A DNA stretch of 64,000 bases from an uncultured Bizionia sp. (GCA_947496215.1 CANMCF010000023.1:2111-66110); one strand, 5' to 3'. Positions 7,301 to 24,271 are shown, counted from the stretch's first letter. Made by a program: numbers and translations. The notes: generated by a model not told the origin, from the letters alone.

Positions 7301-8337
7301 CTACGGTGAAGTTCTTTGAGCAAGCCTTCGATTGGGACATCATGGCTTATGTCTTATATCCGTATTTCTATGCGAAGCAATCGGATTGGAAGACATTGTT
7401 CCAAGAAACAGACGTTGCAGATCCTATTTTCCAAGCCTTTTTACAGTCGGGTATGGCAAGAACGGTTGTTCCTGTGCGTCCAGGGTTCGAAGATGCGGTA
7501 AACTGGTACATGTCCACGGGCGAAATCTGGAATGGGGAAGGATTGATCACAGATCAAGACGATGATCTTTACGTGTCCATCTCAGAAGAAATGGAAACTG
7601 TGGAAGGAGTAGTGGAAGAGACTTGGGAAACACGTTTGCCTACGAGTTTGACGGTGATACAAGCTGGGTCCATAGGTTTGAATGTGGAAGGCCTACCATG
7701 CAATGTGGATTGTGATGACTTTGCGTTGTTCGATTCTGATGGAAACCCAGTATTGGATTCAAACGGAAACCCATTGACAAACAACCCTATAGAGCAAACC
7801 GATGTTTTGATTGGAGGAGCCTCTGGGGTAGGAGGAACTGGTACAGAGGAACTTAAAATGGTCGAGTTTACCTTTGTGGACAACACGGGAAGCAATTTTG
7901 CCAATATAGGGGAGTATGATGCAGAAGGAGCCTTTCCTTTGGTTTTCAAATGCATGGATCAAAAAATAGAGATTCAAAGAGAAGCCCAATGGCATGCCTC
8001 AAACAGCGTTGGTGTAATCTATCAGAAATTGGCGGAACAAGTGTCTTTGATTTCAGGGATTCAGGCAAATCAAGTCTTTAGTAAGAAAGGAGATCCATTG
8101 GGAATTAGATTCAAGGTAGAGATAGCCAAAATTCCAACATTCACATTTGAGAAATTCGTTGAAAAAGGAGCGTTCTCCGAACCAAACCACGATTTATTGA
8201 AGCTAATCATCAATGATACTGCTGTAAAGGTGATATCTCCTACCGTGTATTTGGATAGAATCTTCGATAAAGCAAATACAGGGCTCAAGGAAGCAGAATT
8301 AAACATCAATTTACCTATCGATAGGTTTTTGGTATGA
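4387..8337 (+). CDS. Giant protein 1 of an unrecognised family (about 1316 aa). No signal peptide. Mosaic of conserved and variable modules.
   Basis: Uninterrupted ORF 4300-8337; the track start is a TTG, and ATG 4387 (MRKEIKQNLFRFVTLRNPQLI) aligns with the paralog. Paralog of 13419-17081. I recognise no known domain signature. Confidence 0.85.
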   Translation: MRKEIKQNLFRFVTLRNPQLIDKKESHPGFVYHPDDNYERSVYSEVLSETDEASKMALSKAVSDEFVPLKGRKGVKDYRQTIYDFSLWLMRNKNHLSYKSIKSNAQGVDNLTTEALLVIWDNLIYQTINKKSVYVREALIQVLIADQFFKAFKDFSAGLSGDILFTEDQEKEFVRRANASVVISKALLAATTIKPTTKEKRVSISKIKELENATDVALAKERVQRYQTLVEELKSVETKYKNENQVKYEKALTDYNQTIENLLKKVEPVIVEETNTKGEVSKIETYPNLDLPKFVYNKEAAINKEYLTNKISKDSLAILEEQGLDVHKDFSEVFDAVKTKVKDENEIILGKAPKQIKTLKVGGASVTVNPSLESEPYDYNISPLHSINPGGLRNINMLIFNYVQDSQITDVSYKITFNNGTEKTSTDFTIFNSGTTQILRLFPNLIAFPFGTLSYTLEGEITLEDQTKLSFSKLVKMKSRHNFGMFDLQNDDSGDNPVDSQVFGVTNLGIADFRRVEQEVCCYVPGEVSHIENIMAREYKERATRSLNSIETTSEETSERETEKLTDTTTTERNEMQSEVSSVINEDKSKNYGANASVSGKFGTTSFNAGAHFDASSSSSTSNSNSQAQTYAQEVTERAMERIVQKVSSKRTSRILKEFEENNKHGFDNTKGDKHITGVYRWVDKIYKNKLINYGKRLMYEFAIPEPARFLKDALIKKADDGQLDSGIILPVEPVKPSTIGLNSATNINESSYQGFASKYAAEVSAPVDQYLKIGRAFSKDDQSYDAKGYAFNDIDVPEGYYATSGTVNWAVIQKNNSHKFMSIGLGDSRHSVIGGSGSTSFYNFSDIYKKNIPFSFNTWYIHSGHFNVTINCTRSNEEYKQWQNETYTAIMDAYNDRLREYNEAMAANNIVPDNDEKVSFNPAFNRSLEKKELKRIAIELLIDQDRVSKNDYVDDSLVKVKNDEAFHAHAATVKFFEQAFDWDIMAYVLYPYFYAKQSDWKTLFQETDVADPIFQAFLQSGMARTVVPVRPGFEDAVNWYMSTGEIWNGEGLITDQDDDLYVSISEEMETVEGVVEETWETRLPTSLTVIQAGSIGLNVEGLPCNVDCDDFALFDSDGNPVLDSNGNPLTNNPIEQTDVLIGGASGVGGTGTEELKMVEFTFVDNTGSNFANIGEYDAEGAFPLVFKCMDQKIEIQREAQWHASNSVGVIYQKLAEQVSLISGIQANQVFSKKGDPLGIRFKVEIAKIPTFTFEKFVEKGAFSEPNHDLLKLIINDTAVKVISPTVYLDRIFDKANTGLKEAELNINLPIDRFLV

Positions 8338-8681
8338 GTCAAGTAAAATTGGAAATGATATGGCAACACGAGAAAGTGTTGCCATACATTCTCAATGATC
8401 TAAAAAAGCAAGTAGAGACCATCACAACAGTACATGGTATTGTGTTGTATGGTAGTCGTGCAAAAACGAACATTGAGAATTGGGACACTTTAAAAGGCAA
8501 GGATTGGGATGTTGTGGTGGTAACAGATTTTCCAATAGTCAATACTCAAATATGGACTCAGGATGAAAACTACCATATAGACTTGAGGGTCATTGATAAA
8601 AAAAGAGCGGATGAAATACTGGGGTTTTTGAAACAGACCATAGAATTATATCCTGTGAATCAATTGAAACAGCCTTTTTAA
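8334..8681 (+). CDS. Small Pol-beta-superfamily (minimal) nucleotidyltransferase-like protein
   Basis: VLYGSRAKTN...KDWDVVVVTD fits the G-S...DxD minimal NTase pattern. Its start overlaps the giant gene stop (ATGA), which suggests translational coupling. Confidence 0.45.
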   Translation: MSQVKLEMIWQHEKVLPYILNDLKKQVETITTVHGIVLYGSRAKTNIENWDTLKGKDWDVVVVTDFPIVNTQIWTQDENYHIDLRVIDKKRADEILGFLKQTIELYPVNQLKQPF

Positions 8682-8718
8682 CTCAAAAATTTCAAGTGTA
8701 ATTTAAAAAAAAGAAAGA

Positions 8719-11088
8719 ATGAACAATACAATATACAATGAAACGATTAGAGATATGACACATGTGAGCAAGTTGGCGTCTCAAAAGTTTTATAATAGGA
8801 CGGCTCCGGAAATCTCACAAATCTACTTCCCACAATCTGACCAAAAAAAAATCAAGAACATCGTGGTTGAAACAGATGTGGATACAAGTGGCAAGCTGTT
8901 GGAATATGTGACGAAACGGGTGTATTTCTATGACAAGAACAACAACAACAAGCTGGATGATGATGAACAGTTGGCCTACAATGCTTACATATACACGTCA
9001 ACAGATGCCATAAAGTTGAAAGAGACATATGAAGTGGCCGAAGCAGGGGAAGACGATGTCTTGATTTTTGTAGAAGACAACCAAGGAGACGTAAGTTCCC
9101 AGTTTTGTAGAGCTAGAGTTGGAAAAAATGTTTTGAGCAATTTAAAGAATGCAGGCCATTTATACAACAACAGGAAACTTTTGGCAAGAATAAACGAACA
9201 TGCCCCTATCGATGAAGCCGTTTTAAATGAATTGTTGAAAAAGGGAAAGATAGAGAATACCACGTTGAAGGTGTTGGAATTCTTGTTTGCAGTTCCGGAT
9301 TATCTAGGCCCTTTCAGTCCAAATACTTTTGTAATGAAAGGCTTGGGAACTATATGTGAGGAGATTGCAAAGTTTATAAACAAGGCAAAAGTAGACGATT
9401 ACAGGTGGAACCCCCAAGCTAAAAAACGCAATGAGGATGGGACAGAAGATGAAACACATGAGTTTGCTCCTTTCCTGTTTCCCTTTGTGACAGAAGCATT
9501 GGATAGCATTGATGATTCCAAGGTAAATGGATATATGCAAAAATCCATTGCAGAATTGAAAAGTTTATACGCTTCTCAAGATCAAGCCATTCAAAATTAC
9601 GTTAAGAATGTGGATGTCGGCCGCTTGGGCAATGTGCCAATTTATTTTCCCTATGGAGGTTACGTGAACGTGGAAGTGGATTTGGTTCCGGATTCCATAG
9701 AACTGTTTTTGTTTAACAAGTACTTGCAAGTGAAAAAAGTGATAGATGCGGTATTCGAGAAATTGGAAGGGTTTGATTTCACGGACCTCATCAAAAAAGG
9801 GATTACCACGGCCAATGCATTCCTATGTGGTGTTTGGAATGGTTTGGTAGATGCCATTTCCGGTATTTTCGTGCTTTTGGAAATGGTGTTCAAAGCCGCC
9901 GCTGCAATGAATGATTTCAGGCAAAACTTCAGTACGGAATTTCCAATATTGTTGGAGTATATCGATAACTTTACGGAAGCATTGAGCAGTATAGATTTCA
10001 AAGAGCTCTATACACATCTAAAAACAAAGTTGTCAGATGCATCCATAGGAAGCATATCTTTGGAAACGATTGCTTATTTTAGTGGAGCGTTCATTGGGTT
10101 TGTAATAAGTTTGGTTATTGAAATAGTCGTAGGGATTCTATTTACAGGTGGTACGTTGAGTGTGGCAGCTGTAATAGAAAAGCTAGCGGCCATATTTTCA
10201 GGATTGCTCAGAGCAGGAGCCAAGGTTTTGAAAAAGACTTTTGATTTTTCAAAAAAATTGGTGGTCAACACCTTCAAGGGGTTCAAAAAGTTGTTGCAAG
10301 GAATGATAACTCTTTTGCGTAAGGGAACAGCTGGTTTCAAAGTAATGATAGATGACATATTCAAGGCATTCGGAATTTATGCCAAGGAAGCATTGAGTAA
10401 TGCAAATTCAGGATTGATACCGTTGTTGACAAAAGCAGAATTAAACCTCTACAAGAATTTGGCAAAAGCTTTTTTCAAGCCATTCAAAAAGTTGCTTTTA
10501 AGATATGCGGATAATGCAAGGGTGTTAAGGAGGTGGAGAAAGTTGAACCCTATGGATAGTCTATTAAAAGTTGATATAGACGAACTTTTAAGACTTAGGT
10601 CTTTAAATAAAAGAGGTTACAACAAAAATACTGCAACTATGAAAGCTCAAGTAGAGGTAAATGGAGAAGTTCTTGAGTTGGAATATAAAGCTTTGGCTGG
10701 TAATAAGACTAGTGGAGAAGGATTGCTTGGTAATGTGAATAAAGACTATATAGCTAAGCAATTAGGTATTAGTATAGAAGATTTAATGAAACATTTTGAT
10801 GATATTGCTGATGATGATTTGATAAGAAGGTTTCATGATAGTGAGCATAAGATCTTTAGTGCTTTCGATGATGATGTGTTGAAGCTTCAAACCCGTTATG
10901 GTAAAGAAAGTGTAAATGTTAAGAGTGTAAACTTTAAAACACTTTACGAACCATGTATATCTTGTAAACGTCAAATGATCATTCGTCAAGAAATGCACGA
11001 ATTTTCACTTAAAGTTCAGGCAATATTAATAAAAGGTAAGAATTACGCAAAAAATAATTCAGACTTACAAAGTTTAATGTTAAAATAA
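8719..11088 (+). CDS. Membrane-module protein with polymorphic C-terminal toxin domain (deaminase-like)
   Basis: Central hydrophobic helices (GVWNGLVDAISGIFVLLEMVFKAAAA; IAYFSGAFIGFVISLVIEIVVGILFTGG) are shared with 17278-19125. The C-terminus has FHDSEHKIF followed about 35 aa later by LYEPCISCKRQM, resembling the deaminase HxE...PCxxC layout. An immunity gene starts 6 nt downstream. Confidence 0.6.
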   Translation: MNNTIYNETIRDMTHVSKLASQKFYNRTAPEISQIYFPQSDQKKIKNIVVETDVDTSGKLLEYVTKRVYFYDKNNNNKLDDDEQLAYNAYIYTSTDAIKLKETYEVAEAGEDDVLIFVEDNQGDVSSQFCRARVGKNVLSNLKNAGHLYNNRKLLARINEHAPIDEAVLNELLKKGKIENTTLKVLEFLFAVPDYLGPFSPNTFVMKGLGTICEEIAKFINKAKVDDYRWNPQAKKRNEDGTEDETHEFAPFLFPFVTEALDSIDDSKVNGYMQKSIAELKSLYASQDQAIQNYVKNVDVGRLGNVPIYFPYGGYVNVEVDLVPDSIELFLFNKYLQVKKVIDAVFEKLEGFDFTDLIKKGITTANAFLCGVWNGLVDAISGIFVLLEMVFKAAAAMNDFRQNFSTEFPILLEYIDNFTEALSSIDFKELYTHLKTKLSDASIGSISLETIAYFSGAFIGFVISLVIEIVVGILFTGGTLSVAAVIEKLAAIFSGLLRAGAKVLKKTFDFSKKLVVNTFKGFKKLLQGMITLLRKGTAGFKVMIDDIFKAFGIYAKEALSNANSGLIPLLTKAELNLYKNLAKAFFKPFKKLLLRYADNARVLRRWRKLNPMDSLLKVDIDELLRLRSLNKRGYNKNTATMKAQVEVNGEVLELEYKALAGNKTSGEGLLGNVNKDYIAKQLGISIEDLMKHFDDIADDDLIRRFHDSEHKIFSAFDDDVLKLQTRYGKESVNVKSVNFKTLYEPCISCKRQMIIRQEMHEFSLKVQAILIKGKNYAKNNSDLQSLMLK

Positions 11089-11094
11089 TAAAAA

Positions 11095-11574
11095 ATGGAA
11101 ATACAATTTTTACAAAAATTAAAACAGAATCCTAAGATTGGTGTAAGAGAAATAAAAGGAGTTTTGGAATCAGAGATCTTTGAGGTAGAGAATAAACTTA
11201 ATATTAGTTTTCCAAAATCGTATAAAGAGTTTTTATTTTTAGCAGGAGAGTCTTGTGGAGCATTACAAATATTGGATACTACAGATTTGAAAACTATTTC
11301 TTCAGATTGGCATAAAGAAATACAAAAAGAAGAATTAGAATCTACAAGGACTGAATTTGATGGACCTTTTTGGTTGTTTGCTGAAAGCAATGGATGTGAG
11401 GTTTTTCATTTCTTTTATTTGGAAGATGGTATTGATGATCCAGTGGTATTTTCTGTAGACTATGATATATATGATGATAATAAACGTATAATTAAGACCA
11501 GTGATAAAAAATTCAGCGTATTTATTGAAAATAAGATAAAATCGGCTATAAGAATAGATAAACAAGGATATTAA
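11095..11574 (+). CDS. SMI1/KNR4 (SUKH-1) family immunity protein
   Basis: N-terminal pattern ESEIFEVENKLNISFPKSYKEFLFLAGESCG is typical of SMI1_KNR4. It lies immediately after the toxin gene. Confidence 0.8.
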   Translation: MEIQFLQKLKQNPKIGVREIKGVLESEIFEVENKLNISFPKSYKEFLFLAGESCGALQILDTTDLKTISSDWHKEIQKEELESTRTEFDGPFWLFAESNGCEVFHFFYLEDGIDDPVVFSVDYDIYDDNKRIIKTSDKKFSVFIENKIKSAIRIDKQGY

Positions 11575-11627
11575 TTAGTAAAGTATTCAAAACAAAAAGC
11601 CGAACTCTAGCCAGGTTTAAGAATAAA

Positions 11628-12404: not shown

Positions 12405-12493
12405 TTGTAATGTCAATTTATTTTTTCAGAGATAAAATCATATAGAATCTGTAATATGGTTAAGCGTTATCGTATGATGACTTGTTGGATACA

Positions 12494-12976
12494 ATGAATA
12501 TAGAATATTTAAATAGTTTAAAAGAAAACTCAGAAATTGGAAATAGAAAAATTAAAGGAGTTTCCGAATCAGAGATAACAAGTGTAGAACAAAAACTAAA
12601 TATTGCTTTCCCAAAATCATATAGGGAGTTTTTGTTTTTGGCTGGGGAATCTTGTGGGGCTTTGCCTTTATTGGAATCTGCAGATTTAAAGACATTGTCA
12701 TCAGATTTTTACAAGGAGGTTTTGGAAGAAGACATGAAAGACACCAACACTGTTATAGAGCGACCATTTTGGGTTTTTGCAGACAGTATTGGGGACCAAG
12801 GATTTTGGTTTTTCTATCTTGATGAAGAATCAGAAGATCCGCAAACCTATTATTATGCATATAAAGAAACTGAGCCTTATGAAGCGGTCATTGGTTCTCA
12901 TGAATTGATCTTTAGTGAGTTTATTGATGGAAGAATAGACTTTGGTAATCAAATAGAAAAAGAAGGTATTTGGTAA
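12494..12976 (+). CDS. SMI1/KNR4 (SUKH-1) family immunity protein, paralog of 11095-11574
   Basis: ESEITSVEQKLNIAFPKSYREFLFLAGESCGALPLL aligns with the first SUKH protein. The track start at 12482 is a TTG; ATG 12494 is more likely. Confidence 0.8.
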   Translation: MNIEYLNSLKENSEIGNRKIKGVSESEITSVEQKLNIAFPKSYREFLFLAGESCGALPLLESADLKTLSSDFYKEVLEEDMKDTNTVIERPFWVFADSIGDQGFWFFYLDEESEDPQTYYYAYKETEPYEAVIGSHELIFSEFIDGRIDFGNQIEKEGIW

Positions 12977-13000
12977 CTTAAAATCATTTAATATATCAAT

Positions 13001-13040
13001 AAAAAAAGCCGAACTCTAATCTGAGTTCGGCTTTTTTATT
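13001..13040 (+). terminator. Rho-independent terminator closing locus 1
   Basis: Stem gccgaactc (13008-13016) pairs with gagttcggc (13023-13031). An A-run precedes it and a T-run follows. Confidence 0.75.
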
Positions 13041-13089
13041 TTGAATGTATATGTATATATCATATGTTTGATTGTGTTAAAACCATTAT

Positions 13090-13152
13090 AAACATTTTAC
13101 AAAACAAATAGTGTTGTAGTTGCTTTTGTTTGTAAAATGTTGTATATTTGTA
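13090..13152 (+). promoter_or_regulatory. Second copy of the promoter/operator. The upstream TGTAAAATGTT box is inverted here (13091-13101). A direct box at 13131-13142 abuts the -7 element TATATTTG at 13143-13150.
   Basis: aaacattttacaaaacaaa ... tttgtttgtaaaatgttgtatatttgta forms a 17-18 nt inverted repeat around an approximately 19-nt spacer. Confidence 0.55.
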
Positions 13153-13418
13153 ATGTAATAAGGCTGCTAATGTGCTGAAAAACTATAAATCAAACATTTG
13201 TATAAAAACAAAGCAGCAATTTCTTGATTTTACATAAAAGACGTCTTGAAAAATCAAAAACGACGGATAACTATTCAAACATTTTTTTGAATAGGGTGAA
13301 GAGTTATGCCTTTTATTATTAAGGCTTTGTATTAAGTTAAACCTGTTGGAAAAGCGAAACGATGACAGTTCTTAAAGACAAGAACCTAATAATAATTATA
13401 AATTTTAAAACAATTAGA
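13153..13418 (+). promoter_or_regulatory. Second copy of the conserved 5' leader, including the same hairpin and the uORF MPFIIKALY (13306-13335)
   Basis: Near-identity to 4111-4386. Within the uORF the only differences are ttc to ttt (synonymous) and tga to taa (stop to stop). Confidence 0.5.
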
Positions 13419-16400
13419 ATGAGCAAAGAGATTAAACAAAACCTATTTAGGTTTGTAACCCTACGTAATCCACAATTAATAGAAGACAAAAAAGAACATC
13501 CAGGTTTTGTATATCATCCAAGTGAAGATTATGACGGGAGTGCATACAGAACCATGCTTACAGAAACAGATGTTGCAAGTAAAAAAGCATTGTCTAAAGT
13601 CGTTTCGGATGAATTCACCCCTTTAAAAGGTCGTAAAGGTGTAAAGGACTATTCACAAGCAATGTATGACTTTTCGTTGTGGTTGATGCGCAATAAGAAC
13701 CATTTGTCTTATCAAAGCATAAAATCCAATGCAGAAGGAGTTGGCAATTTGACAACAGAGGCACTTTTGGTTGTTTGGGACAATTTAATATATCAAACAA
13801 TAAACAAAGAATCCGTTTATGCGCGAGAAGCTTTGATACAAGTTTTAATTGCAAATCAATTTTTAAAGGCATTTAAAGGTCTTTCAATAGGAATGGAAGA
13901 ATTTACAGATGACACTGAAAAGGAGTTTGTGCGAAGAGCAAATGCAAGCGTTGTAATTTCGAAATCCTTATTTGTTGAGAATGGAGAGAAAAGTCAATCT
14001 AAAAAAAGATTGACAGAATCTCAAGAAAAAGCAATGCTTAAAGTGATTGAAACAGAAGAAGCCAAGGAGAATTTGGCAGCTTATAAAAAATTGAATGCTG
14101 AGCTTAAAGGAATAGAGATAGGTTACAACAAGGAATCTCAAAGATCATACGATAATACTTTAAAAACGCACAAAGCATCTATAGCTAAAATATTGGCGTC
14201 AACAGAACCTGTAGTAGTTAGTGAGACAGACCCAAGAACAGGAGTTGTTAAAAAAGTTAAAACATATCCAAACTTGGAACTGCCATCGTTTAACTTTGAA
14301 AACACAAAAGCAATAGATTCCAAATACTTGAAAGAGCGATTGTCTCCAGAATCTATGCAGGTTTTCGATGCAGTAGAGTTAGGGGTTTACGATGATTTTT
14401 CTGAAGTGAACAACGCTATTAATAATCAAATTCAGCTTGTAAATCAAACGATTCTAAATAACGATTCTTCAACATCAGGAACGGTATTGGTTGGGGGAAC
14501 CACAACTACCGTAAGTGAAAACATGGCAACTTTAGACCCTTATTGCTTTTTTGTTTCTAGGTTGAGTTCAATAGGAAACCCCGGATTGACCATGTTTTTA
14601 GGAACTGGGTACTTGGGAGCTTTAGCATCGAATGCGTCTTACACTTTGGAAAACTTGGATTCTAACATAAAGTATGAAGGAACAGTAATACAAACAAATT
14701 CTAGTTTCAACAATACAAGTACGCGTTTGTTTTTTCCAATAGCTCATCCTATAGACAATAATGGGAGTTATCGTTTTTCGGGAAAATTCACATTGGATAA
14801 TGGCGTGACATTAAGTTTCGATGTTACAAACGACGTATCTAAACGAGGTGTGAGATTTAATGGTTGTTGTGATGCCGTAAAAGGAGATGATACTACAGAT
14901 CCAGCAGGAGGAGAGGTTAAGCCACAAGTGTTTGGAGTCACCAATTTAGGTATTGCGGATTTCAGACGTGTAGAACAAGAGGTGTGCTGCTATGTGCCTG
15001 GAGAAGTGTCACACATAGAAAATATCATGGCACGTGAATACAAAGAACGTGCAACAAGAAGTTTGAACAGTGTAGAAACTACCAGTGAGGAAACGACAGA
15101 ACATGAAACAGAAAACTTAACAGATACAACTACAACCGAGCGCAATGAAATGCAGAGTGAAGTTGCTTCCGTTATTAATGAGGATAAATCTCAAAACTAT
15201 GGAGCAAATGCAAGTGTGAGCTATAGTCCTACAAAAGCATTGTCCATAAATGCAGGAGGTTATGCGGATTTTTCATCATCAAGCTCTACGTCAAACTCCA
15301 ATAGTCAAGCTCAAACCTATGCACAAGAAGTGACTGAGAGAGCAATGGAGCGTATTGTTCAAAAAGTAAGCAATAAACGTACTTCTCGTATTTTAAGAGA
15401 GTTCGAAGAGAATAACAAGCATGGTTTTGACAATACCAAAGGCGATAAGCATATTACAGGTGTGTACCGTTGGGTTGATAAGATTTACAAGAATAAATTA
15501 ATCAATTATGGTAAGCGTTTAATGTATGAATTTGCGATACCGGAACCAGCTAAATTTTTTAAGGAGGCATTATGGAAAAAGTTCAAAAACGATGAATTGG
15601 GGGCTGAGGTTGTATTGCCTATAAAACCAGCTCATCCAAGAGACATTGGTGTGACTTCTCCAACGAGTATTATAGAGTCGACTTACCAATTAAAGGCGGC
15701 TGAATACAATGCAGAGGTTATTGCAGCTCCAGAAAAATACGATTATGTCGGTACGTCGTTTACTAAATCGCAACAAGGTGGAGACGGCGGAGATAACACC
15801 AATAAATCTGCCAAAGATGTCATTAAAATCCCAAAAGGATATAAAAGCATTGCAGCAAAAACAACAGGAAGACAAAAAAATGGTGCAGTTTTAATTTCTG
15901 TTGCCGGTGAAGACTTTCCTGTTAATAGTTCGTACTATTCTACAATAACTCCTCATTTGGACGAATTACCTGTTTCTGTTTCTTTTGAATGGAACTGGGT
16001 GACGAATGTAAATATAGATGTAAAGTGTGAGAGAACGGATGGAGCCTACAAACAATGGCAAAATGAGACGTTCAATGCTATCATGGAAGCTTATAATGAC
16101 CGTTTGCGAGAGTATAACGAATCGATTATTGCAAATGAGATCAACCAGAATGCCAGTGGTGAAAAATTAAAATTCAATCCATTGTTCAATAGAAGTATAG
16201 AAAAGAAAGAGTTAAAACGTATTGCGATTGAATTGATCATTGATCAAGACAGGATTTCCAAAAACAATTATAATGCAATCAATGATGCTACAGGTTTGTC
16301 AAAAGTGATGAAAACACAAGGTTTGCAAGATCATGCAGCTACCGTTAAATTCTTTGAGCAAGCATTCGATTGGGATATCATGTCATACATCTTTTATCCA

Positions 16401-17081
16401 TATTTTTATGCTAATGAAGAGAATTGGAAAGACTTGTTTCAGTCTCAAGATGCAGCAGATCCGTTATTTCAAGGTTTCTTGCAATCCGGTATGGCTAGAA
16501 CAATTGTTCCTGTTCGCCCAGGGTTTGAAGACGCAATGAACTGGTATATGTCTACTGGAGAAATCTGGAATGGTCAAGGATTGATCACGGATCAAGATGA
16601 TGACCTTTATGTGTCCATTGCAGAAGAAATGCAAACCGTGGAAGGAGAAGTGGAAGATACGTGGGAAACACGTTTGCCAACCAATTTAACTGTAATACAA
16701 GCAGGTTCAATAGGTTTAAATGTGGAAGGGTTGCCATGTAACATTGATTGCGACGATTTTGCGTTGTTTGATTCTGATGGCAAGCCAATTTTGGATGACA
16801 ATGGAAAGCAGGTGACTGAAAACCCGATAGAGCAAACCAATACAATGGTTGGGGGCGAGCTTGATCCAACCGAGTTGGAAAAGGTACAAAGCCGCTTGAT
16901 CGAAAATGTAGACATAGACAATGGTTACCTTAAACTGACCACAGAAGGAAGCAACAGGCAGACAGTTGCACAAATTTCCGTGGAAGCAATCAAACGAGCC
17001 ATAGATGAGTCGGTAGCTACTACGACGACCAGAACGTCTACCCTTGAAAAAGGCTCTGAAACAACTACGGCTTCAAGATAA
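13419..17081 (+). CDS. Giant protein 2 of the same unrecognised family (about 1220 aa)
   Basis: Uninterrupted ORF 13362-17081. ATG 13419 (MSKEIKQNLFRFVTLRNPQLI) aligns with protein 1. The N-terminal, core and C-proximal modules are shared, while two internal regions and the tail differ. Confidence 0.85.
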   Translation: MSKEIKQNLFRFVTLRNPQLIEDKKEHPGFVYHPSEDYDGSAYRTMLTETDVASKKALSKVVSDEFTPLKGRKGVKDYSQAMYDFSLWLMRNKNHLSYQSIKSNAEGVGNLTTEALLVVWDNLIYQTINKESVYAREALIQVLIANQFLKAFKGLSIGMEEFTDDTEKEFVRRANASVVISKSLFVENGEKSQSKKRLTESQEKAMLKVIETEEAKENLAAYKKLNAELKGIEIGYNKESQRSYDNTLKTHKASIAKILASTEPVVVSETDPRTGVVKKVKTYPNLELPSFNFENTKAIDSKYLKERLSPESMQVFDAVELGVYDDFSEVNNAINNQIQLVNQTILNNDSSTSGTVLVGGTTTTVSENMATLDPYCFFVSRLSSIGNPGLTMFLGTGYLGALASNASYTLENLDSNIKYEGTVIQTNSSFNNTSTRLFFPIAHPIDNNGSYRFSGKFTLDNGVTLSFDVTNDVSKRGVRFNGCCDAVKGDDTTDPAGGEVKPQVFGVTNLGIADFRRVEQEVCCYVPGEVSHIENIMAREYKERATRSLNSVETTSEETTEHETENLTDTTTTERNEMQSEVASVINEDKSQNYGANASVSYSPTKALSINAGGYADFSSSSSTSNSNSQAQTYAQEVTERAMERIVQKVSNKRTSRILREFEENNKHGFDNTKGDKHITGVYRWVDKIYKNKLINYGKRLMYEFAIPEPAKFFKEALWKKFKNDELGAEVVLPIKPAHPRDIGVTSPTSIIESTYQLKAAEYNAEVIAAPEKYDYVGTSFTKSQQGGDGGDNTNKSAKDVIKIPKGYKSIAAKTTGRQKNGAVLISVAGEDFPVNSSYYSTITPHLDELPVSVSFEWNWVTNVNIDVKCERTDGAYKQWQNETFNAIMEAYNDRLREYNESIIANEINQNASGEKLKFNPLFNRSIEKKELKRIAIELIIDQDRISKNNYNAINDATGLSKVMKTQGLQDHAATVKFFEQAFDWDIMSYIFYPYFYANEENWKDLFQSQDAADPLFQGFLQSGMARTIVPVRPGFEDAMNWYMSTGEIWNGQGLITDQDDDLYVSIAEEMQTVEGEVEDTWETRLPTNLTVIQAGSIGLNVEGLPCNIDCDDFALFDSDGKPILDDNGKQVTENPIEQTNTMVGGELDPTELEKVQSRLIENVDIDNGYLKLTTEGSNRQTVAQISVEAIKRAIDESVATTTTRTSTLEKGSETTTASR

Positions 17082-17277
17082 CGTTTGGCACATTTCCTAA
17101 TGCTGGGAAAATAAATGTTTAATCCATCTTACTTGTCATTTTAGGTAACCTCAAACTTAATCAGCAGGTTCCAAAATAAGATTCCTCATTCTTTTTTTCA
17201 AAGGAGAATGAGGAAACAGGTAAGGTGTGTTTAAATGTTGCCAGACAAATGTTTAACAATTGAAAAAAGAATAAATA

Positions 17278-19125
17278 ATGAGTAATATAAATGAGAACAA
17301 TCCATTGGAGGGAATCGATTTCCCGGATGGTGTTTCAAATGCCTCTAACCTCTTTGCTGCAAATGCACCGATTTCGAATTCCATATTTCAAACTTGTACT
17401 ACAGATAATTTTTTGAATTACTTCTTTCAAGGAGCAGAGCGTAAGGATGTCGTGGAAAAAATGGGAGCTTTTGGAGGCAAGATAGTAGAAGAAACTTATG
17501 TTGGAGGAGGAATCGAAAAAGTATATAGGACAAACCGATATGTCAAAAAAGATGGAATTAGGCAAGAAGCGGGAACAGTGGTTTTGATTATTGGTACAGA
17601 TGGAGCAGAAATACTGAAGACCCATAATGGCTTGGTGCCAAAAAAAGGGGAACAAATTATCCTTCTGGAAAAAAATGACAATGATTTCTCTGGAGCCATA
17701 ATGCGTTTTAAACAGGATACAAGTATAAACATCAACAAATCCGCAGTTTCATTGACCAGTTTCATCAATAAACGCTATGAGATCACATTGGATCAATTTA
17801 AAGACATTGTCAATAGGGTAGACAACACCTCTGCTCTGGAAAGTTTGGTGATCTCGATACTTGACAATACCAAAACAGTTAGAACCGTGGCAACGGTAGG
17901 TTTGGCATTGGCAGGTAAAATGATAGACTCAGCCATAAAGGGGTTTGATGAATTTGTGGATGGTTCGCTAAAGATCGATCCTAGTTTTTGGAACCCGGAC
18001 CATAAGGATTTCAAACAGAAGGTAAATGTAACATCAGAACAAATAAAGGAGTTAACAGCCTCTTTGGATGTTATTGGTGGAAAAGTGGATGGATTGAGTT
18101 TTAAAAGCGTGGTTGCTGCCGGAGGAGCTGCATCTGTGGCAGCAGGACCGTTTGCACTTGCATTTCTGGCTCCCGGAGCAGTGGCATACAAATTATATTC
18201 CGAAGAAATAGAATTGGTGTTCGATAAGATGAAGGCTCAAATAAAAAGCGCCCTAAAGACTCTTAAGGAATTTTTGAACAATACGTTGGAAAGCCTGATA
18301 AAAGGCATAAATACGACAATAAATGTCGTATTGGCTTTTATTTCCGGAGTTTGGTCAGGTTTGGTGGACTTTGTTGCAGACATCATAAGGCTCTTCCTGT
18401 TCTTGGTGAAATTGGCTGTGGCCGGTGCAGGAAAAGTAAATGAGGTGATTGGTGTTAAAGAAGGGGATTCCAAAGCATTTGTAAAGAACTTTGGGTTGTA
18501 CTATAACCTCATCTTGGAAAACATAGATAATACGTTGCAAGGTTTGGGAGCAGTAAACTGGTTGGAATTCTTCAAGGAATCCTTTTTAAAGTTCGAACTG
18601 TTGAAAATACGTATCCTAGCCAAGATCTTCGATAAGGCCGGGAAGACTCTGGACGGATTGAATTATGCTGAGTGGGCCTATTACATAGCCTATGCCATAC
18701 TATTGATTGCAGATATCATATTGTCCTTCTTCTTTCCTGGTCTGTTGGCAACCAAAATAGCCAAATTAGGCAAGGCAGGAAAGGTGTTGGCGAAAATCAT
18801 TGTAGCTGTGCAGGATGCTATGGCACTTGTATTTAAAATAGGGTTTAAGACAGTTGCCTTTGGTGTGAAAAGCATTATAGGTGTTTGGTCCAGCATTGTA
18901 GGTATTTTAAGAAAGGGAACTAAAAAACTCTTGGAGTTTTTGGATGTAGTGTTCGCTAATCTGGCAAAGGTGTTCGATGAGGTTATTACTGGGGTGTCTA
19001 AAGCGGCAGAAAAGGCTTACAAGTCTTTGTTTAATGTAACTGAACGAAGTTTGATAGATAAGTTGGGCTTAAAGGTAAGTAAATACGAGGATGACATATT
19101 AACACTTTGTCCGATAGGCAAATAA
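17278..19125 (+). CDS. Membrane-module protein, paralog of the central part of 8719-11088
   Basis: LAFISGVWSGLVDFVADIIRLFLFLVKLAVAGAG and GILRKGTKKLLEFLDVVF align with GVWNGLVDAISGIFVLLEMVF and LLRKGTAGFKVMIDDIF of the 789-aa protein. The N- and C-termini are unrelated. Confidence 0.7.
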   Translation: MSNINENNPLEGIDFPDGVSNASNLFAANAPISNSIFQTCTTDNFLNYFFQGAERKDVVEKMGAFGGKIVEETYVGGGIEKVYRTNRYVKKDGIRQEAGTVVLIIGTDGAEILKTHNGLVPKKGEQIILLEKNDNDFSGAIMRFKQDTSININKSAVSLTSFINKRYEITLDQFKDIVNRVDNTSALESLVISILDNTKTVRTVATVGLALAGKMIDSAIKGFDEFVDGSLKIDPSFWNPDHKDFKQKVNVTSEQIKELTASLDVIGGKVDGLSFKSVVAAGGAASVAAGPFALAFLAPGAVAYKLYSEEIELVFDKMKAQIKSALKTLKEFLNNTLESLIKGINTTINVVLAFISGVWSGLVDFVADIIRLFLFLVKLAVAGAGKVNEVIGVKEGDSKAFVKNFGLYYNLILENIDNTLQGLGAVNWLEFFKESFLKFELLKIRILAKIFDKAGKTLDGLNYAEWAYYIAYAILLIADIILSFFFPGLLATKIAKLGKAGKVLAKIIVAVQDAMALVFKIGFKTVAFGVKSIIGVWSSIVGILRKGTKKLLEFLDVVFANLAKVFDEVITGVSKAAEKAYKSLFNVTERSLIDKLGLKVSKYEDDILTLCPIGK

Positions 19126-19138
19126 AACCGATACATGT

Positions 19139-19960
19139 ATGAAACAGACAATAAAAAAACTGTGCTTGTATTGGCAAGCCAAAAAAGTAGAAGCCAAAGC
19201 AATTAAAAAAATTGTTGATTTACCAATGTTAAAAGTGGTATATAAAAAAGATACTAGTATAACATTGGGTTGTTTAACGACAGGAATGTCCAATAGCAAA
19301 CCGACTTTGTCATGGAATAGTGTGGAACTATTGGTCAAAAACAAAACTGGAGATGTCAGGGATTTTTTTAAAAAGGTTTATAAGGAATCCAAGGCCAAAA
19401 ATATCTCTCCACAAAAGTATTTGGATGAGTTGGCTGAATTAACTGAAAAAGCTAATTTACGTAGGATAGCTTTAGGGAAATGGGCTAATAAGTTTGATTC
19501 TAGTTTTTTCAATCATCTGAGCGGAGATGTTGGGACTGAGAAAATAACAATTTTTTTTAAAGAATTAGTTTATGTTGCCCCTAAAGGGCAAGGAGGACAT
19601 TGGCTTAATAAATTTTTAAAAGTAGATCAGGTTACTTTTCCTCCAGGAATTAGCAAGGTTAGTCAAATAGCAGATGATGTTCCTTTTAAAGCAAAAGTTA
19701 CCATTAAATCTGCAAAAGGTAAAGTATTTCCAAAAACAGCAGAGTCTTCTATGTTTCCTAAAAATTGGAGTAAAACAAGAATACAGGAAGAAATTGCTTG
19801 GGTTTATGAAAATACTGTAGTTAAAAATATTAATAGAAAAATAAAAGGACCAAACGATTTATTTAATAAGTTTGAAGGAGATACAACAACTGGGTTTAAA
19901 GTATTGTTAGAGGTTGATGACTTAGGAAAAATTGTTAATGCATATCCAATTATTATTTAA
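19139..19960 (+). CDS. Stand-alone toxin with C-terminal bacterial EndoU-like RNase domain
   Basis: GQGGHW ... SSMFPKNWSKTRIQEEIAWVYEN ... GKIVNAYPI matches my recollection of the EndoU_bacteria pattern (GGH ... FFP..WS ... I.taYP). Confidence 0.6.
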   Translation: MKQTIKKLCLYWQAKKVEAKAIKKIVDLPMLKVVYKKDTSITLGCLTTGMSNSKPTLSWNSVELLVKNKTGDVRDFFKKVYKESKAKNISPQKYLDELAELTEKANLRRIALGKWANKFDSSFFNHLSGDVGTEKITIFFKELVYVAPKGQGGHWLNKFLKVDQVTFPPGISKVSQIADDVPFKAKVTIKSAKGKVFPKTAESSMFPKNWSKTRIQEEIAWVYENTVVKNINRKIKGPNDLFNKFEGDTTTGFKVLLEVDDLGKIVNAYPIII

Positions 19961-19970
19961 AAAAACAAAA

Positions 19971-20327
19971 ATGAATTATAAGTTTTATAAAGAAGAAATA
20001 GACGGAATTATTACTTTAGGCGTAATGCCTGAAAAAAAAGAGTATAATATATTGTTTAGGTTTGGTAACTATGGTTGGACATCATTAAAGGCGCAGGAAA
20101 TAATAGATGGAGTTCAAGAAAGCAAAGAAAAACCTAAAGGAGAAGAATATGTTTGGGCAAACGAGGATGTTACATTGTATTCTAATGAAAATGGAATATT
20201 GTTGATTGATGACATCTCTCAAAGAGCAGGAGAAAAGAATCCTGAAAAATTGAATTTTGGCATTGGTACTGACGAGTTTATTGTATTTATGCAAGAGTTT
20301 AAGTTGTTCATTGAGGAGAATAGTTAA
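19971..20327 (+). CDS. Small cytoplasmic protein, candidate cognate immunity protein for the EndoU-like toxin
   Basis: 118-aa ORF (MNYKFYKEEIDG) starting 10 nt after the toxin stop. The track start at 19932 overlaps the toxin gene and is less likely. Confidence 0.5.
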   Translation: MNYKFYKEEIDGIITLGVMPEKKEYNILFRFGNYGWTSLKAQEIIDGVQESKEKPKGEEYVWANEDVTLYSNENGILLIDDISQRAGEKNPEKLNFGIGTDEFIVFMQEFKLFIEENS

Positions 20328-20368
20328 ATATCGTTGGGTTACCATTTAAGTAAACCAAATGATTAAAT

Positions 20369-20399
20369 AAAAAGAGCGCCAACATTGGCGCTCTTTTTA
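20369..20399. terminator. Bidirectional terminator between convergent genes
   Basis: aaaaagagcgccaacattggcgctcttttt: a GC-rich palindrome flanked by an A-run and a T-run. Confidence 0.75.
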
Positions 20400-20416
20400 T
20401 TTATGTTCTAAAACTT

Positions 20417-21655
20417 TTAGTTTCCGGCGATGTTGTTTGTGTCTTTCCTTGACGTTGCATGTCTGAAATCCGGAGCGTCTTTCAAATTTGGGTTTATGAA
20501 AAAGCGGGTTATTGAATCATCTGTTATATTGATGCCTTCATTGCTGTTGGCTACAAAGTGATTTTCACAATGACTTATTTTTAAATCTTTCAATTTCAGA
20601 AACTCCTTAAGCTCTTTTTTTGGTAGTTGCCTAGCTATGATCAAGAAATCTCTAAAGCCGTAAGCGATGCTGTTTTCAAAAGTCAAATGACTATTTTCAC
20701 CTAGATGGATGGCTTCCTTGATCAAGCCTTGATCGTTATCCTCGACATTTACCAAAGTGATGTTGGTTGCTTTTACATTTGTCTTGTCTCCATTCGGGTT
20801 GAAATCTTCAAATTTTTTGTAGGTGTCTATCTCAAAAGCCCTGGATTTTCTATTGTCCGAAGAATAAGGATGTCTTATGGCAATGCTATTGCTTATGATC
20901 GATTGAGCACCTTTTGTGAAATCGAAGTCGTCATCGGTTGCCCTATACGAAATCAAGTTTTTCATTTTTACGTCACCTCCATAGAATTCGAAAGAGTCGT
21001 CGTTGGAGAAGCTTATCTGAATGTTTTCTATTGTCGTCTTGTTTCCCACACCGGCAAACGAAATTCCATTCAACTCTTTTTTCAAGCTTAGCTTTCTTCC
21101 ACAATACTCCACTCTCACGTATTTTAAGGTTCCAGACGAACTCTCGGGGTTATTTCCCCCATAGACTTTGAATTCTGGTTTTAAATCAAATCCTAGGACT
21201 CCCAGTCCGCCGTAGGCATTTACAGGAGCGTCACCCATGATTATGATTCCTCCCCAATCCCCTGGCCTTCTGGAATAGGTGTTTTTATTGGATGTAAATA
21301 CAATGGGGCTTACATCTGTGCCTTCGGCAATTATTTCGGATCCTTTCGTCACGACCAAGGTTCCACAGGACTTGTAGTCACCTCTAATGATCGTGCCTGG
21401 TTCTATTGTCAAAGTGGCATTGTTTGTGACATAGACAACGCCTTGCAATAAGTATGTGTGTCTACTGGATAGAGTAGTGTCTTCGGTTATGATGCCCGCC
21501 AAGGTCTTGTTTGTTTTTCTGTATTCTTGCTTCATGGGATTGAAATTGGTCCAATTTTCAAACCAATTCTCTTCACCAAAAATACCTGGGTTTACTTGTG
21601 AATGACTTAATACACAGCTTAAAACTACGCTAAATGCTAAAATGATCTTCTTCAT
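20417..21655 (-). CDS. Secreted hypothetical protein (signal peptide; possibly beta-helix-like)
   Basis: Signal peptide MKKIILAFSVVLSCVLSHSQ. Long ORF with no catalytic motif that I recognise. Confidence 0.6.
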   Translation of the reverse strand: MKKIILAFSVVLSCVLSHSQVNPGIFGEENWFENWTNFNPMKQEYRKTNKTLAGIITEDTTLSSRHTYLLQGVVYVTNNATLTIEPGTIIRGDYKSCGTLVVTKGSEIIAEGTDVSPIVFTSNKNTYSRRPGDWGGIIIMGDAPVNAYGGLGVLGFDLKPEFKVYGGNNPESSSGTLKYVRVEYCGRKLSLKKELNGISFAGVGNKTTIENIQISFSNDDSFEFYGGDVKMKNLISYRATDDDFDFTKGAQSIISNSIAIRHPYSSDNRKSRAFEIDTYKKFEDFNPNGDKTNVKATNITLVNVEDNDQGLIKEAIHLGENSHLTFENSIAYGFRDFLIIARQLPKKELKEFLKLKDLKISHCENHFVANSNEGINITDDSITRFFINPNLKDAPDFRHATSRKDTNNIAGN

Positions 21656-21871
21656 GGTACTTGCTTGTTATTTGGAATGTAAAGCTATTGCTTATCCATT
21701 ATGCTAGTATTTGGATAGGTTTATGCTTACGTTACCATAGATTGCTCAATGCGAAATAATTGTTAAATCTAGGCATGTGTAAATGAAAAAGGTATTGAGA
21801 ATATGTTTTCAAAATACAAGTTTGTCCATGGCTATTGCATAAGTTTGCATACACCATAAAACCAGATTCAG

Positions 21872-22372
21872 ATGTTATTGGCTCTAGATGTCCATTATAA
21901 AGAGAATTATGCGAAAAGCGTTGGAGTGATTTTCAATGCCACAGAGGGCACTTTGCAAGCTAGCCTCATAGAGATCATAGATGAGGTTGAGGATTATGTG
22001 TCTGGACAATTCTACAAACGCGAACTGCCATGTTTGTTGAAGGTTGTGGATAAGGTAAATTTGACGACTATTGATGCAATTGTCGTAGATGGTCATGTAT
22101 ATGTGGACAATGATTGCAATCTGGGGTTGGGCGGACACTTGTACAAGGCATTGGATGAACAAATACCAATTATTGGGGTTGCCAAACGCTCTTTTCATGA
22201 CACTGAGGCTGTTTCAAAGGAGGTCTTCAAAGGGAAAAGTAAGAATCCGCTTTATGTTTCTGCGATTGGCATGGATTTACAGGATGCCATAAGCATTATC
22301 TCTCAGCTTCATGGGGAGCATAGAATACCAACGATTCTCAAGGCGTTGGACGATATTACAAAAGAAGCATGA
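21872..22372 (+). CDS. nfi: Endonuclease V family protein
   Basis: Aligns by eye with E. coli Nfi: LDVHY vs ADVGF, YVSGQFYKRELPCLL vs YIPGFLSFREYPALL, VVDGH...IPIIGVAKRSF vs FVDGHG...VPTIGVAKKRL, and NPLYVS vs NPLFIA. Confidence 0.75.
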   Translation: MLLALDVHYKENYAKSVGVIFNATEGTLQASLIEIIDEVEDYVSGQFYKRELPCLLKVVDKVNLTTIDAIVVDGHVYVDNDCNLGLGGHLYKALDEQIPIIGVAKRSFHDTEAVSKEVFKGKSKNPLYVSAIGMDLQDAISIISQLHGEHRIPTILKALDDITKEA

Positions 22373-22419
22373 TTGCAAGATTCTGTCTTAAAACAAATTA
22401 CAAAAAACAATAAATTAAT

Positions 22420-22463
22420 CTGTAAAATGTTTGTTTATTTTCTGCAAAATGATTATATTTGTA
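22420..22463 (+). promoter_or_regulatory. Third copy of the promoter/operator (boxes tgtaaaatgttt 22421-22432 and tgcaaaatgatt 22443-22454; -7 TATATTTG at 22454-22461)
   Basis: ctgtaaaatgtttgtttattttctgcaaaatgattatatttgta has the same architecture as 4067-4110. The downstream leader is unrelated. Confidence 0.55.
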
Positions 22464-22623
22464 TTCGCTTTTCTAACAACGGTTTACCGAAGTTAAAATT
22501 AATTCGTGTTAAGTAGAAACCCAAAAACCTAGGCTTAATCTATATCTGATTAAGAAAAAACAAGCAATGGAAGTCTTTGGTCAGTGGTTTGGTCTACTTG
22601 AAGTTAAAAAATCAAACATATGT

Positions 22624-23061
22624 ATGAGTATAATTAATAAAGCGCTATCCGAGTATGGCGTTAAGGAAATTGTAGGCTCCAAAGACAACCTTAGAATCTT
22701 GAAGTATTTTGATGAAATAGGTTTCAATGGCTCAAAATTACATGACGAGACAGCTTGGTGTAGTGCTTTTGCAAATTGGGTTGCAAAAACCTCAGGTCAT
22801 GAGTATTCCAAGAAGTTGAATGCTAGAAGTTGGCTGGCTGTTGGAGACTCCACTAACAGACCCAAGGTGGGAGATGTAGTGGTACTTTGGCGAGAAAGCC
22901 CAAACAGCTGGAAAGGGCATGTTGGGTTCTTTGTCAAGGAGACCAAGAATTTCGTGTATGTCTTGGGAGGCAACCAACGTAATATGGTATGTATCAAGGC
23001 TTACCCAAAAAGTCGTGTGTTAGACTATAAAAAACTCAAAAAAAATAACAAATTAAAATAG
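22624..23061 (+). CDS. TIGR02594-type NlpC/P60-CHAP-like peptidoglycan hydrolase (endolysin-like)
   Basis: GVKEIVGSKDN..ILKYF...DETAWCSAFANWV...ARSW...GDVVVLWR...KGHVGFF...VLGGNQRNMV matches the TIGR02594 family pattern. Confidence 0.8.
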   Translation: MSIINKALSEYGVKEIVGSKDNLRILKYFDEIGFNGSKLHDETAWCSAFANWVAKTSGHEYSKKLNARSWLAVGDSTNRPKVGDVVVLWRESPNSWKGHVGFFVKETKNFVYVLGGNQRNMVCIKAYPKSRVLDYKKLKKNNKLK

Positions 23062-23068
23062 ATGAGAT

Positions 23069-23503: not shown

Positions 23504-23625
23504 AAAACTAAAACCAAACCTTTCAAAAGCAAGAAATCCTTCCTAAGAAGCTTAGGAAGGAGGCTTTTGATTGTTTAAACAATGAGATTCCTCTGAGATG
23601 GGGATTGAATAAAAAACTTTTTTCG

Positions 23626-24228: not shown

Positions 24229-24271
24229 GTCTTCTTTGGAAGAATCCCGTGAACATTTCATAGTTAATAAT

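Follow-up and report, generated by a model that had tools for sequence, protein, structure and literature searches.

Within a stretch of 64,000 nucleotides from an uncultured Bizionia sp. (GCA_947496215.1 CANMCF010000023.1:2111-66110; the whole of this stretch is called the window here), the gene at 13419-17081 encodes large protein 2 (LP2), a tandem paralogue of large protein 1 (LP1) in the same window. LP2 belongs to an unannotated family that is plausibly an undescribed toxin-delivery component. The protein is modular, its modules are exchanged by recombination at several scales, it is coupled to polymorphic toxins and immunity genes, and its gene has an operator motif in common with a nearby lysis cassette. 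In the explanation that we somewhat favour, the mosaic reflects purifying selection on a scaffold together with repeated homologous recombination, for which the conserved scaffold, the 5' leader and the flanking genes serve as anchors, such that variable region 2, variable region 1, the N module, the tail, the downstream toxin cassette or the whole unit are each replaced independently. In that same explanation, and judging from the genes and the structure models, the large protein would deliver the toxin or recognise the target in a bacteriocin-like system that lysis releases.

The open reading frame (ORF) at 13362-17081 (plus strand) is real, and reading from the start at 13419 (MSKEIKQNLFRFV...) gives a product of 1220 residues. 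This start agrees with the N-termini of homologues and with a 1220-residue database entry (P0001), and translation gives the C-terminus named in the initial annotation of the window (...ATTTTRTSTLEKGSETTTASR). The label "giant protein" used there is overstated as to size. LP2, its modules and its paralogue, with folds taken from AlphaFold2 (AF2) models and confidence given as predicted local distance difference test (pLDDT), are as follows.

13419-17081, plus strand: LP2, 1220 residues, of a family without annotation that occurs in several phyla.
13419-13958, plus strand: N module, residues 1-180; a near-invariant disordered N-terminal peptide (NLFRFVTLRNPQ), then a predicted helical domain (AF2; invariant columns of the alignment).
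13959-14918, plus strand: variable region 1 (V1), residues 181-500; a predicted helix of about 60 residues, a small alpha/beta unit and a beta-sandwich (about 354-487), pLDDT 70-89.
14919-15563, plus strand: core, residues 501-715; two predicted strands of about 30 residues that form a long beta-ribbon.
15564-16043, plus strand: variable region 2 (V2), residues 716-875; a linker and a predicted jelly-roll-like beta-sandwich (about 774-872), pLDDT >90.
16044-16808, plus strand: C module, residues 876-1130; a predicted helical hairpin and alpha/beta domain with a conserved GLPCNxxC motif, pLDDT mostly >90.
16809-17081, plus strand: variable tail, residues 1131-1220, with a Thr-rich end.
4387-8337, plus strand: LP1, 1316 residues, the paralogue used for comparison.

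Replacement of a whole cassette is seen when the window is compared with Bizionia sp. MAG-66, where the locus lies on two abutting contigs (L007 and L009). Nucleotide identity is 94.6% over window positions 1-10355, 91.5% over 12689-13528 and 86% over 20441-26734; between 13528 and 20441, family-conserved blocks alone align, at 65-76%. The left breakpoint falls inside LP2. Codons 1-36 are 96% identical in nucleotides, with 94% of synonymous codons identical; from codon 37 on, protein identity is 46% and the synonymous sites are back at the saturated baseline. Codon 37 is thus where nucleotide identity drops from 96% to about 57%; the second breakpoint lies at 20441. The stretch between the two is:

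13528-20441, plus strand: cassette replaced relative to MAG-66, comprising LP2 from codon 37, downstream protein 2 (DP2), a toxin gene and an immunity gene.

Because the 5' side of the codon-37 breakpoint is near-identical, the leader and the first 36 codons serve as the anchor for recombination on the left. In the first cassette, that of LP1 and downstream protein 1 (DP1), the DP1 toxin tip and the adjoining SUKH gene alone differ from MAG-66 (L007 15969-16730), and the sequence upstream is 94.6% identical. Toxin tip and immunity gene are displaced jointly both here (window 10355-11602) and between the Tenacibaculum loci L029 and L031; the event at 10355-11602 is a classic C-terminal toxin and immunity displacement.

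Smaller exchanges are caught between close relatives elsewhere in the family. V2 alone has been swapped between Tenacibaculum larymnensis and T. gallaicum (L029/L031) and between T. aiptasiae and an uncultured Tenacibaculum (L023/L027): in both pairs all modules except V2 are 0.90-0.98 identical, and V2 is 0.37 and 0.32 identical, respectively. In nucleotides, an identity of about 0.95 gives way to about 0.46 over gene nucleotides 2219-2800 and then returns. Elsewhere the difference between close relatives is concentrated in other modules: V1 and the tail for L063/L066, the N module for L067/L050. In Psychroserpens, the large proteins of L077 and L079 are 96.5% identical, and in Winogradskyella those of L016 and L018 are 89% identical, yet within each pair the downstream proteins are unrelated; these downstream-cassette swaps have their breakpoints at the 3' end of the large-protein gene and immediately ahead of the conserved lysis region.

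The modules of LP2 itself have different nearest relatives. The N module is closest to that of LP1 (identity 0.79, versus 0.46-0.60 for homologues in other genomes). The nearest V1 is that of P0002, P0007 or P0003 (0.52-0.54), with LP1 at only 0.29, and the nearest V2 is that of Olleya P0009 or of L001b (0.49-0.55), with P0002 at 0.35. The C module is 83% identical to that of P0002, and the tail is again closest to P0002 (L001a), at 0.80-0.87, with all others at 0.43 or below. Each of the nearest-relative contrasts between the N module, V1, V2 and the tail has a bootstrap of 0.99-1.00. N modules group by genome and tails by cassette type, and V1 and V2 each group with other homologues; the metagenomic contig L001, which carries two cassettes, repeats the pattern, with N modules again grouping by genome and tails by cassette type.

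The comparison of LP2 with LP1, from which module exchange was initially proposed, has a different meaning. By BLASTP, LP2 and LP1 (4387-8334) are 58% identical across 1192 columns (E = 0). A codon-aware sliding comparison in 30-codon windows gives amino acid identities of 60-87% in the N module (13419 to about 13950), 19-48% in V1 (about 13950-14900), 87-100% in the core (14907 to about 15540) with a dip to 62% at 15177-15266, 14-50% in V2 (about 15540-16000), and 54-93% in the C module (16047 to about 16800). From about 16812 the tails are essentially unrelated (0-32%), that of LP1 being 96 residues longer. Over whole modules, identity is 79% for N, 29-34% for V1, 89% for the core, 27-29% for V2, 76-77% for C and 22% for the tail. 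These windows bear out the initial description of three common modules separated by two divergent inserts and followed by a divergent tail, with boundaries that were correct within about 30 nucleotides and transitions that are abrupt at 30-codon resolution; the "near-identity" ascribed to the modules holds for the protein and not for the DNA, where the conserved modules are 75-88% identical. One spot within the core, the turn of its hairpin (15177-15266, LP2 residues about 587-616), is a local hotspot of variation: it accounts for the 62% window between LP2 and LP1, and the same turn falls to 0.62 nucleotide identity between L029 and L031 (gene nucleotide about 1859), genes that are otherwise 95% identical.

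An alignment of 59 family members (A1), with conservation taken from the 57 that remain when both window proteins are left out, indicates where these boundaries come from. In 30-column windows, LP2/LP1 identity tracks conservation among the 57 other homologues (Pearson r = 0.86, Spearman rho = 0.89), and the core is 80-87% identical even to homologues of other genera. At four-fold degenerate sites, LP2 and LP1 have an identity of 0.37-0.46 in every module, versus 0.29 by chance. Since these sites are near saturation in every module, the two genes are old copies throughout. Taken together, the match to family-wide conservation and the saturated synonymous sites attribute the LP2/LP1 mosaic to unequal constraint, not to recent exchange, and the sharp boundaries are the edges of constrained domains. 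The step from abrupt boundaries to recombination thus does not hold, and recombination itself stands on the other evidence given above. Recent gene conversion between LP1 and LP2 is rejected by the synonymous sites, except possibly in the first 36 or so codons and the leader.

Different gene sets follow LP1 and LP2, as the initial annotation stated and as the content of both cassettes agrees. LP1 is followed by a 115-residue ORF, a 789-residue protein whose C-terminus is weakly deaminase-like, and immunity genes of the SUKH/SMI1_KNR4 type (11095-11574 and 12482-12976); LP2 is followed by a 615-residue protein, a separate 273-residue EndoU toxin and an immunity gene for a product of 129-131 residues.

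8719-11088, plus strand: DP1, 789 residues, with a weak deaminase-like C-terminal tip.
17278-19125, plus strand: DP2, 615 residues, a helical protein that contains several hydrophobic segments and itself lacks a toxin domain.
19139-19960, plus strand: EndoU toxin, 273 residues, with a C-terminal EndoU nuclease domain (PF14436, E = 6.2e-11).
19932-20327, plus strand: putative cognate immunity protein, 129-131 residues.

DP2 and DP1 are 23% identical over 561 columns. DP2 has weak PHROG tape-measure matches (E = 7.5e-6). For the downstream proteins, several PHROG tape-measure families match weakly (E = 7.5e-6 to 2e-3), over helical or hydrophobic regions where composition could suffice. The EndoU module of the window recurs as the C-terminus of fused Tenacibaculum downstream proteins (L028, L019), and homologues of the 19932-20327 product are encoded directly behind these fused, EndoU-tipped proteins, which match the toxin strongly; further homologues lie further downstream in L069, where the protein matches the toxin weakly, and in L063.

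This coupling extends through the family. A same-strand ORF of at least 560 residues occurs within the next three genes for 72 of 87 large proteins. The 62 downstream proteins that were scanned have a common scaffold with at least 8 different toxin families at the tip: Tox-MPTase4 (8 proteins), WHH (5), Colicin-DNase (5), EndoU (4), deaminases (5), a pyocin-type DNase (one) and ADP-ribosyltransferases. Toxin carriers come in two architectures, either fused (750-900 residues) or split into a protein of 600-740 residues and a separate toxin of 255-357 residues; the window (17278-19960) is split, and the observation also covers L010, L011, L024, L030, L057, L061, L062, L065, L080 and L083. The first 46 residues of the split toxin in the window resemble those of the split toxin of L083 and, from this likeness, could be a docking peptide. 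In three Flavobacterium loci (L050 10001-17347, L067 10001-17349 and L082 5921-13672), two large-protein genes stand head to tail before one downstream toxin protein, spaced by about 95 nucleotides in L050 and L067 and about 380 in L082, an arrangement that may point to a hetero-oligomer. The 115-residue ORF (8334-8681; L007 13948-14295; L001 21889-22239) overlaps the LP1 stop codon; Pfam relates it, weakly and below threshold (E = 0.005), to Polbeta-type nucleotidyltransferases. Among the loci examined, it is found only behind large proteins with a long extra C-terminal tail domain of about 170 residues, the sole consistent co-occurrence.

Outside Bacteroidota, in Nitrosomonas, Cohnella and Vibrio, the gene adjoining the large-protein homologue encodes a PT-TG protein in the first two and a patatin in Vibrio. 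The Nitrosomonas and Cohnella proteins score 28.9 and 31.4 bits against PF14449 (PT-TG), for which the cut-off is 23.5. The downstream proteins of the window differ in this respect, having no PF14449 hit even at E <= 5, and a profile comparison of flavobacterial downstream proteins with the Nitrosomonas PT-TG protein gives no similarity. PT-TG toxins without trafficking domains are acknowledged as an open problem (PMC13483458).

The Flavobacteriaceae locus adjoins rnpA, a chromosomal position that is fixed in several genera, and carries candidate elements of a regulon around the toxin cassettes.

3225-4037, minus strand: CI/LexA-like repressor with helix-turn-helix (HTH) and S24 peptidase domains, divergent from LP1.
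13091-13418, plus strand: LP2 promoter, operator and 5' leader, with an inverted repeat at 13091-13103 and 13129-13141 and a Bacteroidetes-type -7 box at about 13144-13153.
22392-24228, plus strand: lysis cassette, consisting of an operator-like inverted repeat (22392-22431) and genes for a CHAP protein, a holin and a 200-residue envelope protein.
22567-23061, plus strand: CHAP peptidoglycan hydrolase of the lysis cassette.
23069-23503, plus strand: holin (Phage_holin_4_1) of the lysis cassette.
23605-24228, plus strand: 200-residue envelope protein of the lysis cassette.

A 13-bp inverted repeat (AACATTTTACAAA...TTTGTAAAATGTT) overlaps the Bacteroidetes-type promoter boxes of LP1, LP2 and CHAP (sites at 4059-4109, 13091-13141 and 22392-22431). 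The presence of one repeat at three promoters suggests that LP1, LP2 and the lysis cassette form a single regulon under the divergent S24/HTH repressor. Across the family, the repeat is strongly enriched at such promoters: it lies upstream of the large-protein genes in 34 of 80 loci and upstream of CHAP in 17 of 36, over a background of 0.114 per kb. A homologue of the repressor is encoded in 48 of the 73 loci that have an upstream flank, and CHAP and holin are both present in 33 of the 64 loci with at least 9 kb downstream.

The LP2 leader is 90% identical to that of LP1 (4088-4386). Over about 265 nucleotides (13154-13418; 4122-4386), the leader is 70-82% identical across genera, which is above the conservation of the coding N module, and homologous leaders are present in L001, L002, L004, L010, L011, L016, L018, L024, L030, L041, L045 and L079. 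Covarying helices are found at 13163-13217, 13271-13294, 13308-13325 and 13340-13370. In these four helices 93.9% of cells pair, versus 83.1% in shuffles, with none of 500 shuffles reaching the observed value, and the covariation score is 0.355 versus 0.03-0.10 in slid controls. Rfam gives sub-threshold hits alone, and these lie on the upstream terminator. From its conservation and predicted pairing, the leader may be an undescribed cis-regulatory RNA.

The family is large and widely spread. A profile search returns 4255 clusters at 50% identity, and assemblies sampled at one genome per species contain 519 hits, of which the best 80 are all from Flavobacteriaceae-type genomes. A second search finds homologues of about 1037 residues in Nitrosomonas, Vibrio, Streptomyces, Pseudanabaena, Cohnella and others; the family therefore occurs in both monoderm and diderm bacteria. 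These compact homologues (P0241-P0356; L084 Nitrosomonas europaea, L085 Vibrio nigripulchritudo, L086 Cohnella) span Proteobacteria, Actinobacteria, Cyanobacteria, Firmicutes and Chloroflexi and are 55-83% identical to one another, an identity across phyla that points to horizontal spread of a two-gene module (large protein plus PT-TG or patatin). In the Nitrosomonas locus, Tc-toxin-like genes lie 8 kb away. Whether searched as a single sequence or as a profile, the large protein has no counterpart in Pfam, NCBIfam, PHROGs, PADLOC or PDB sequences, the longer family members (1400-1550 residues) have no fused toxin domain, and no description of the family or system was found in the literature.

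The AF2 models (pLDDT 66.8 at full length and 75.6 for residues 495-1130) give some idea of how such a protein may be built. The two strands of about 30 residues in the core pair confidently, as a predicted beta-ribbon of about 100 Å. Between them the model places a helix, an amphipathic hairpin and a second helix, with Ser/Thr-rich tracts flanking; homologues from different phyla retain the alternation of hydrophobic and polar residues in the hairpin and the Ser/Thr-rich tracts on either side of it. Foldseek was run twice against PDB and once against BFVD, and V2 gives only generic beta-sandwich, carbohydrate-binding module or viral-protrusion matches. LP2 has no transmembrane segment and no signal peptide, its N-terminus (MSKEIKQNLFRFVTLRNPQ) being without a hydrophobic core. 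By sequence and by Pfam and NCBIfam models, both it and the downstream protein lack a signal peptide and a C-terminal domain of the type IX secretion system (T9SS), and LP2 thus has neither of the features of a T9SS substrate (a Sec signal peptide and a C-terminal sorting domain).

Several known systems resemble this one in part. As in polymorphic toxin systems, a scaffold carries variable C-terminal tips that are exchanged with immunity genes, the immunity gene is directly downstream, the toxin families are typical, immunity is of the SUKH type, and PT-TG neighbours occur in other phyla. Unlike those systems, this one has a conserved partner of about 1200 residues that has no Pfam or NCBIfam match and was not found mentioned in the two papers on such systems compared here. 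It also lacks a known trafficking domain: Pfam and NCBIfam models for a type II secretion system (T2SS) signal, T5SS, T6SS, T7SS, PVC, TcdB/TcaC, MuF and others find none in the large or downstream proteins, and the N-termini are not hydrophobic.

Colicins and S-type pyocins shuffle receptor-binding, translocation and killing modules, have a downstream immunity gene, and are under repressor control with lysis-dependent release. The window locus likewise has a repressor, an operator, lysis genes and a downstream immunity gene. It differs in that the putative targeting and translocation functions would reside on a separate protein of about 1200 residues without homology to colicin or pyocin domains, and in that only some toxin tips are colicin- or pyocin-type DNases.

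Tc (ABC) toxins with type 10 secretion (PMC10847048, PMC10847046) provide another likeness, in that TcA is also a conserved scaffold with variable beta-sandwich receptor-binding inserts, the polymorphic toxin is a separate component, and release is by holin and endolysin from a lysing subpopulation, for which the window has the genes alone. As in the type 10 secretion system (T10SS), a holin and a peptidoglycan hydrolase are encoded with the toxin genes, here under a promoter with the common operator motif. In contrast, neither Pfam nor Foldseek gives a match to TcA, TcB or TcC (ABC_toxin_N, Rhs cocoon, SpvB), LP2 is much smaller, the toxin is not in an Rhs cocoon, and the targets are presumably bacteria because immunity genes are present. 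The very long beta-strands, the amphipathic hairpin with Ser/Thr-rich flanks and the separate cargo protein recall binary AB toxins and aerolysin-like beta-pore formers (anthrax protective antigen), a resemblance that comes from the models and that we treat as a lead only, since no pore-former family is matched in Pfam or Foldseek and the hairpin is modelled at low confidence. No tube, sheath, baseplate or spike domain of a tailocin or extracellular contractile injection system occurs among the ORFs scanned in window positions 1-26 kb, and homologous loci have the same simple gene set. The closest analogies in function are colicins and S-type pyocins, Tc toxins with type 10 secretion, and binary AB toxins; LP2 does not appear to be a member of any of these families.

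In the delivery model favoured here, the CI-like S24 repressor would hold the two toxin cassettes and the CHAP-holin cassette under one operator. Induction would lyse a fraction of the producer cells and so release both the large protein and the downstream protein with its toxin; the variable beta-sandwiches would then bind receptors on target cells, and the conserved core would oligomerise or insert into the membrane, admitting the toxin. A role of the variable regions in target specificity, which had also been suggested initially, is plausible. A bolder version, less likely than not but with a substantial chance of being right, sees a self-contained, undescribed delivery machine distributed across phyla and made of two genes, the large protein and a toxin carrier, in which the inserts would set the target range and the ribbon and hairpin of the core would be the translocation pore, brought in Flavobacteriaceae under the control of a lysis regulon that has a repressor and a structured leader RNA.

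Several points weigh against a lysis-released delivery protein. CHAP and holin lie within 10 kb in no more than about half of the flavobacterial loci, and no lysis cassette lies near the homologue in three loci examined outside Bacteroidota, so lysis release may be a Flavobacteriaceae addition and not the core mechanism. The hairpin region of the core is modelled at low confidence. Foldseek gives no hit below E = 1e-3 against PDB, and its best match in BFVD, a phage tail protein at E = 5e-6, is marginal, with TM-scores of 0.07-0.13 and a very large root-mean-square deviation; given such TM-scores, the phage-tail matches are read as generic beta-sandwich similarity. The family is known from sequence and predicted models alone, and one large protein tolerates unrelated downstream proteins, so that an interface between the two is only hypothetical.

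It is unlikely, though the best placed of the alternatives, that the large protein acts on the producer side, exporting or assembling the adjoining toxin as a new secretion or chaperone component that is not released. Such a factor would account for the tight linkage of both genes across phyla with different envelopes, for the nearly invariant N-terminal peptide and for the fact that one large protein serves unrelated downstream proteins. However, the protein would have to do so without a transmembrane segment or signal peptide, and the presence of the family in monoderm as well as diderm hosts argues against an envelope-specific machine. Moreover, its two hypervariable predicted beta-sandwiches are exchanged independently of the cargo, as would be expected of diversification against an external target and hardly of a housekeeping exporter.

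The initial annotation proposed that the inserts and tail specify the cognate downstream membrane-module/toxin partner, a reading that close relatives contradict and that is now quite improbable. In L029/L031, V2 has been replaced and the downstream protein is still 96% identical over 680 residues. Conversely, L077/L079 and L016/L018 are alike in V1, V2 and most of the tail, yet have unrelated downstream proteins, and LP2 and L001a have tails that are 80% identical and downstream proteins without BLAST similarity. V2 and the downstream protein thus vary independently, in both directions. Covariation tests on 69 non-redundant pairs of large and downstream proteins do yield an association: the more alike two tails are, the more alike are the N-termini of their downstream proteins (partial Mantel r = 0.34, with core and C-module identity controlled), and the 5% most similar tails have similar partners in 50 of 98 pairs, versus 100 of 1858 among the rest. 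However, the N module and V1 are enriched to a comparable degree, so the tail association is no stronger than linkage predicts; the Mantel and partial Mantel signals are significant but non-specific, and the counter-examples outweigh them. The co-occurrence of the long LP1-type tail with the 115-residue ORF, and the position of the L077/L079 breakpoint just inside the 3' end of the large-protein gene, also speak for some dependence on the partner.

A role in abortive infection or anti-phage defence, with the large protein as a hypervariable sensor, the toxins as effectors and the lysis cassette as the means of cell suicide, is very unlikely. The sensor-like domains are indeed hypervariable, nucleases, deaminases and patatin are also known as effectors in defence systems, and the repressor and lysis genes at the locus are of phage type. 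Yet neither the large nor the downstream protein is hit by a PADLOC model (the Vibrio patatin neighbour alone matches generic phospholipase effector models), and dedicated immunity genes (SUKH-type and others), orphan immunity genes and tips displaced with their immunity genes are hallmarks of interbacterial polymorphic toxins.

The phage-type repressor, holin and CHAP genes, the BFVD phage-tail match and the weak PHROG tape-measure matches of the downstream proteins (E about 1e-5) might also be taken for a decayed prophage or tailocin remnant, with a tail-fibre or host-specificity role for the large protein and a toxin-bearing tape measure as the downstream protein. This is highly improbable, given the very low TM-scores and very large deviation of that match, the lack of a PHROG match for the large protein, the fixed position beside rnpA in several genera, and the absence of capsid, portal, terminase, sheath, tube and baseplate domains among the ORFs scanned in window positions 1-26 kb. 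Finally, it is extremely improbable that there was no recombination and that unequal constraint or diversifying selection alone acted on an old tandem duplication, for although LP2/LP1 identity follows family conservation (r = 0.86) and synonymous divergence is uniformly high in all modules, the modules of LP2 have different nearest relatives at bootstraps of at least 0.99, and breakpoints among close relatives are abrupt (at codon 37 and around V2).

Polymorphic toxins shape bacterial competition, and for many of them no path of exit from the producer or of entry into the target has been identified. The large-protein family, with members of about 1000-1300 residues, 519 genome hits and thousands of metagenomic clusters, is a candidate for this missing delivery component. 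Natural variants already differ in V2 alone, in the downstream protein alone or in the toxin tip alone, which makes the target-range and pairing hypotheses directly testable with existing isolates of Tenacibaculum, Psychroserpens and Winogradskyella. Some Tenacibaculum species are fish pathogens, and so the question is also of practical interest. The operator and the structured leader, in turn, would offer a tractable circuit linking toxin expression to altruistic lysis in Bacteroidota.

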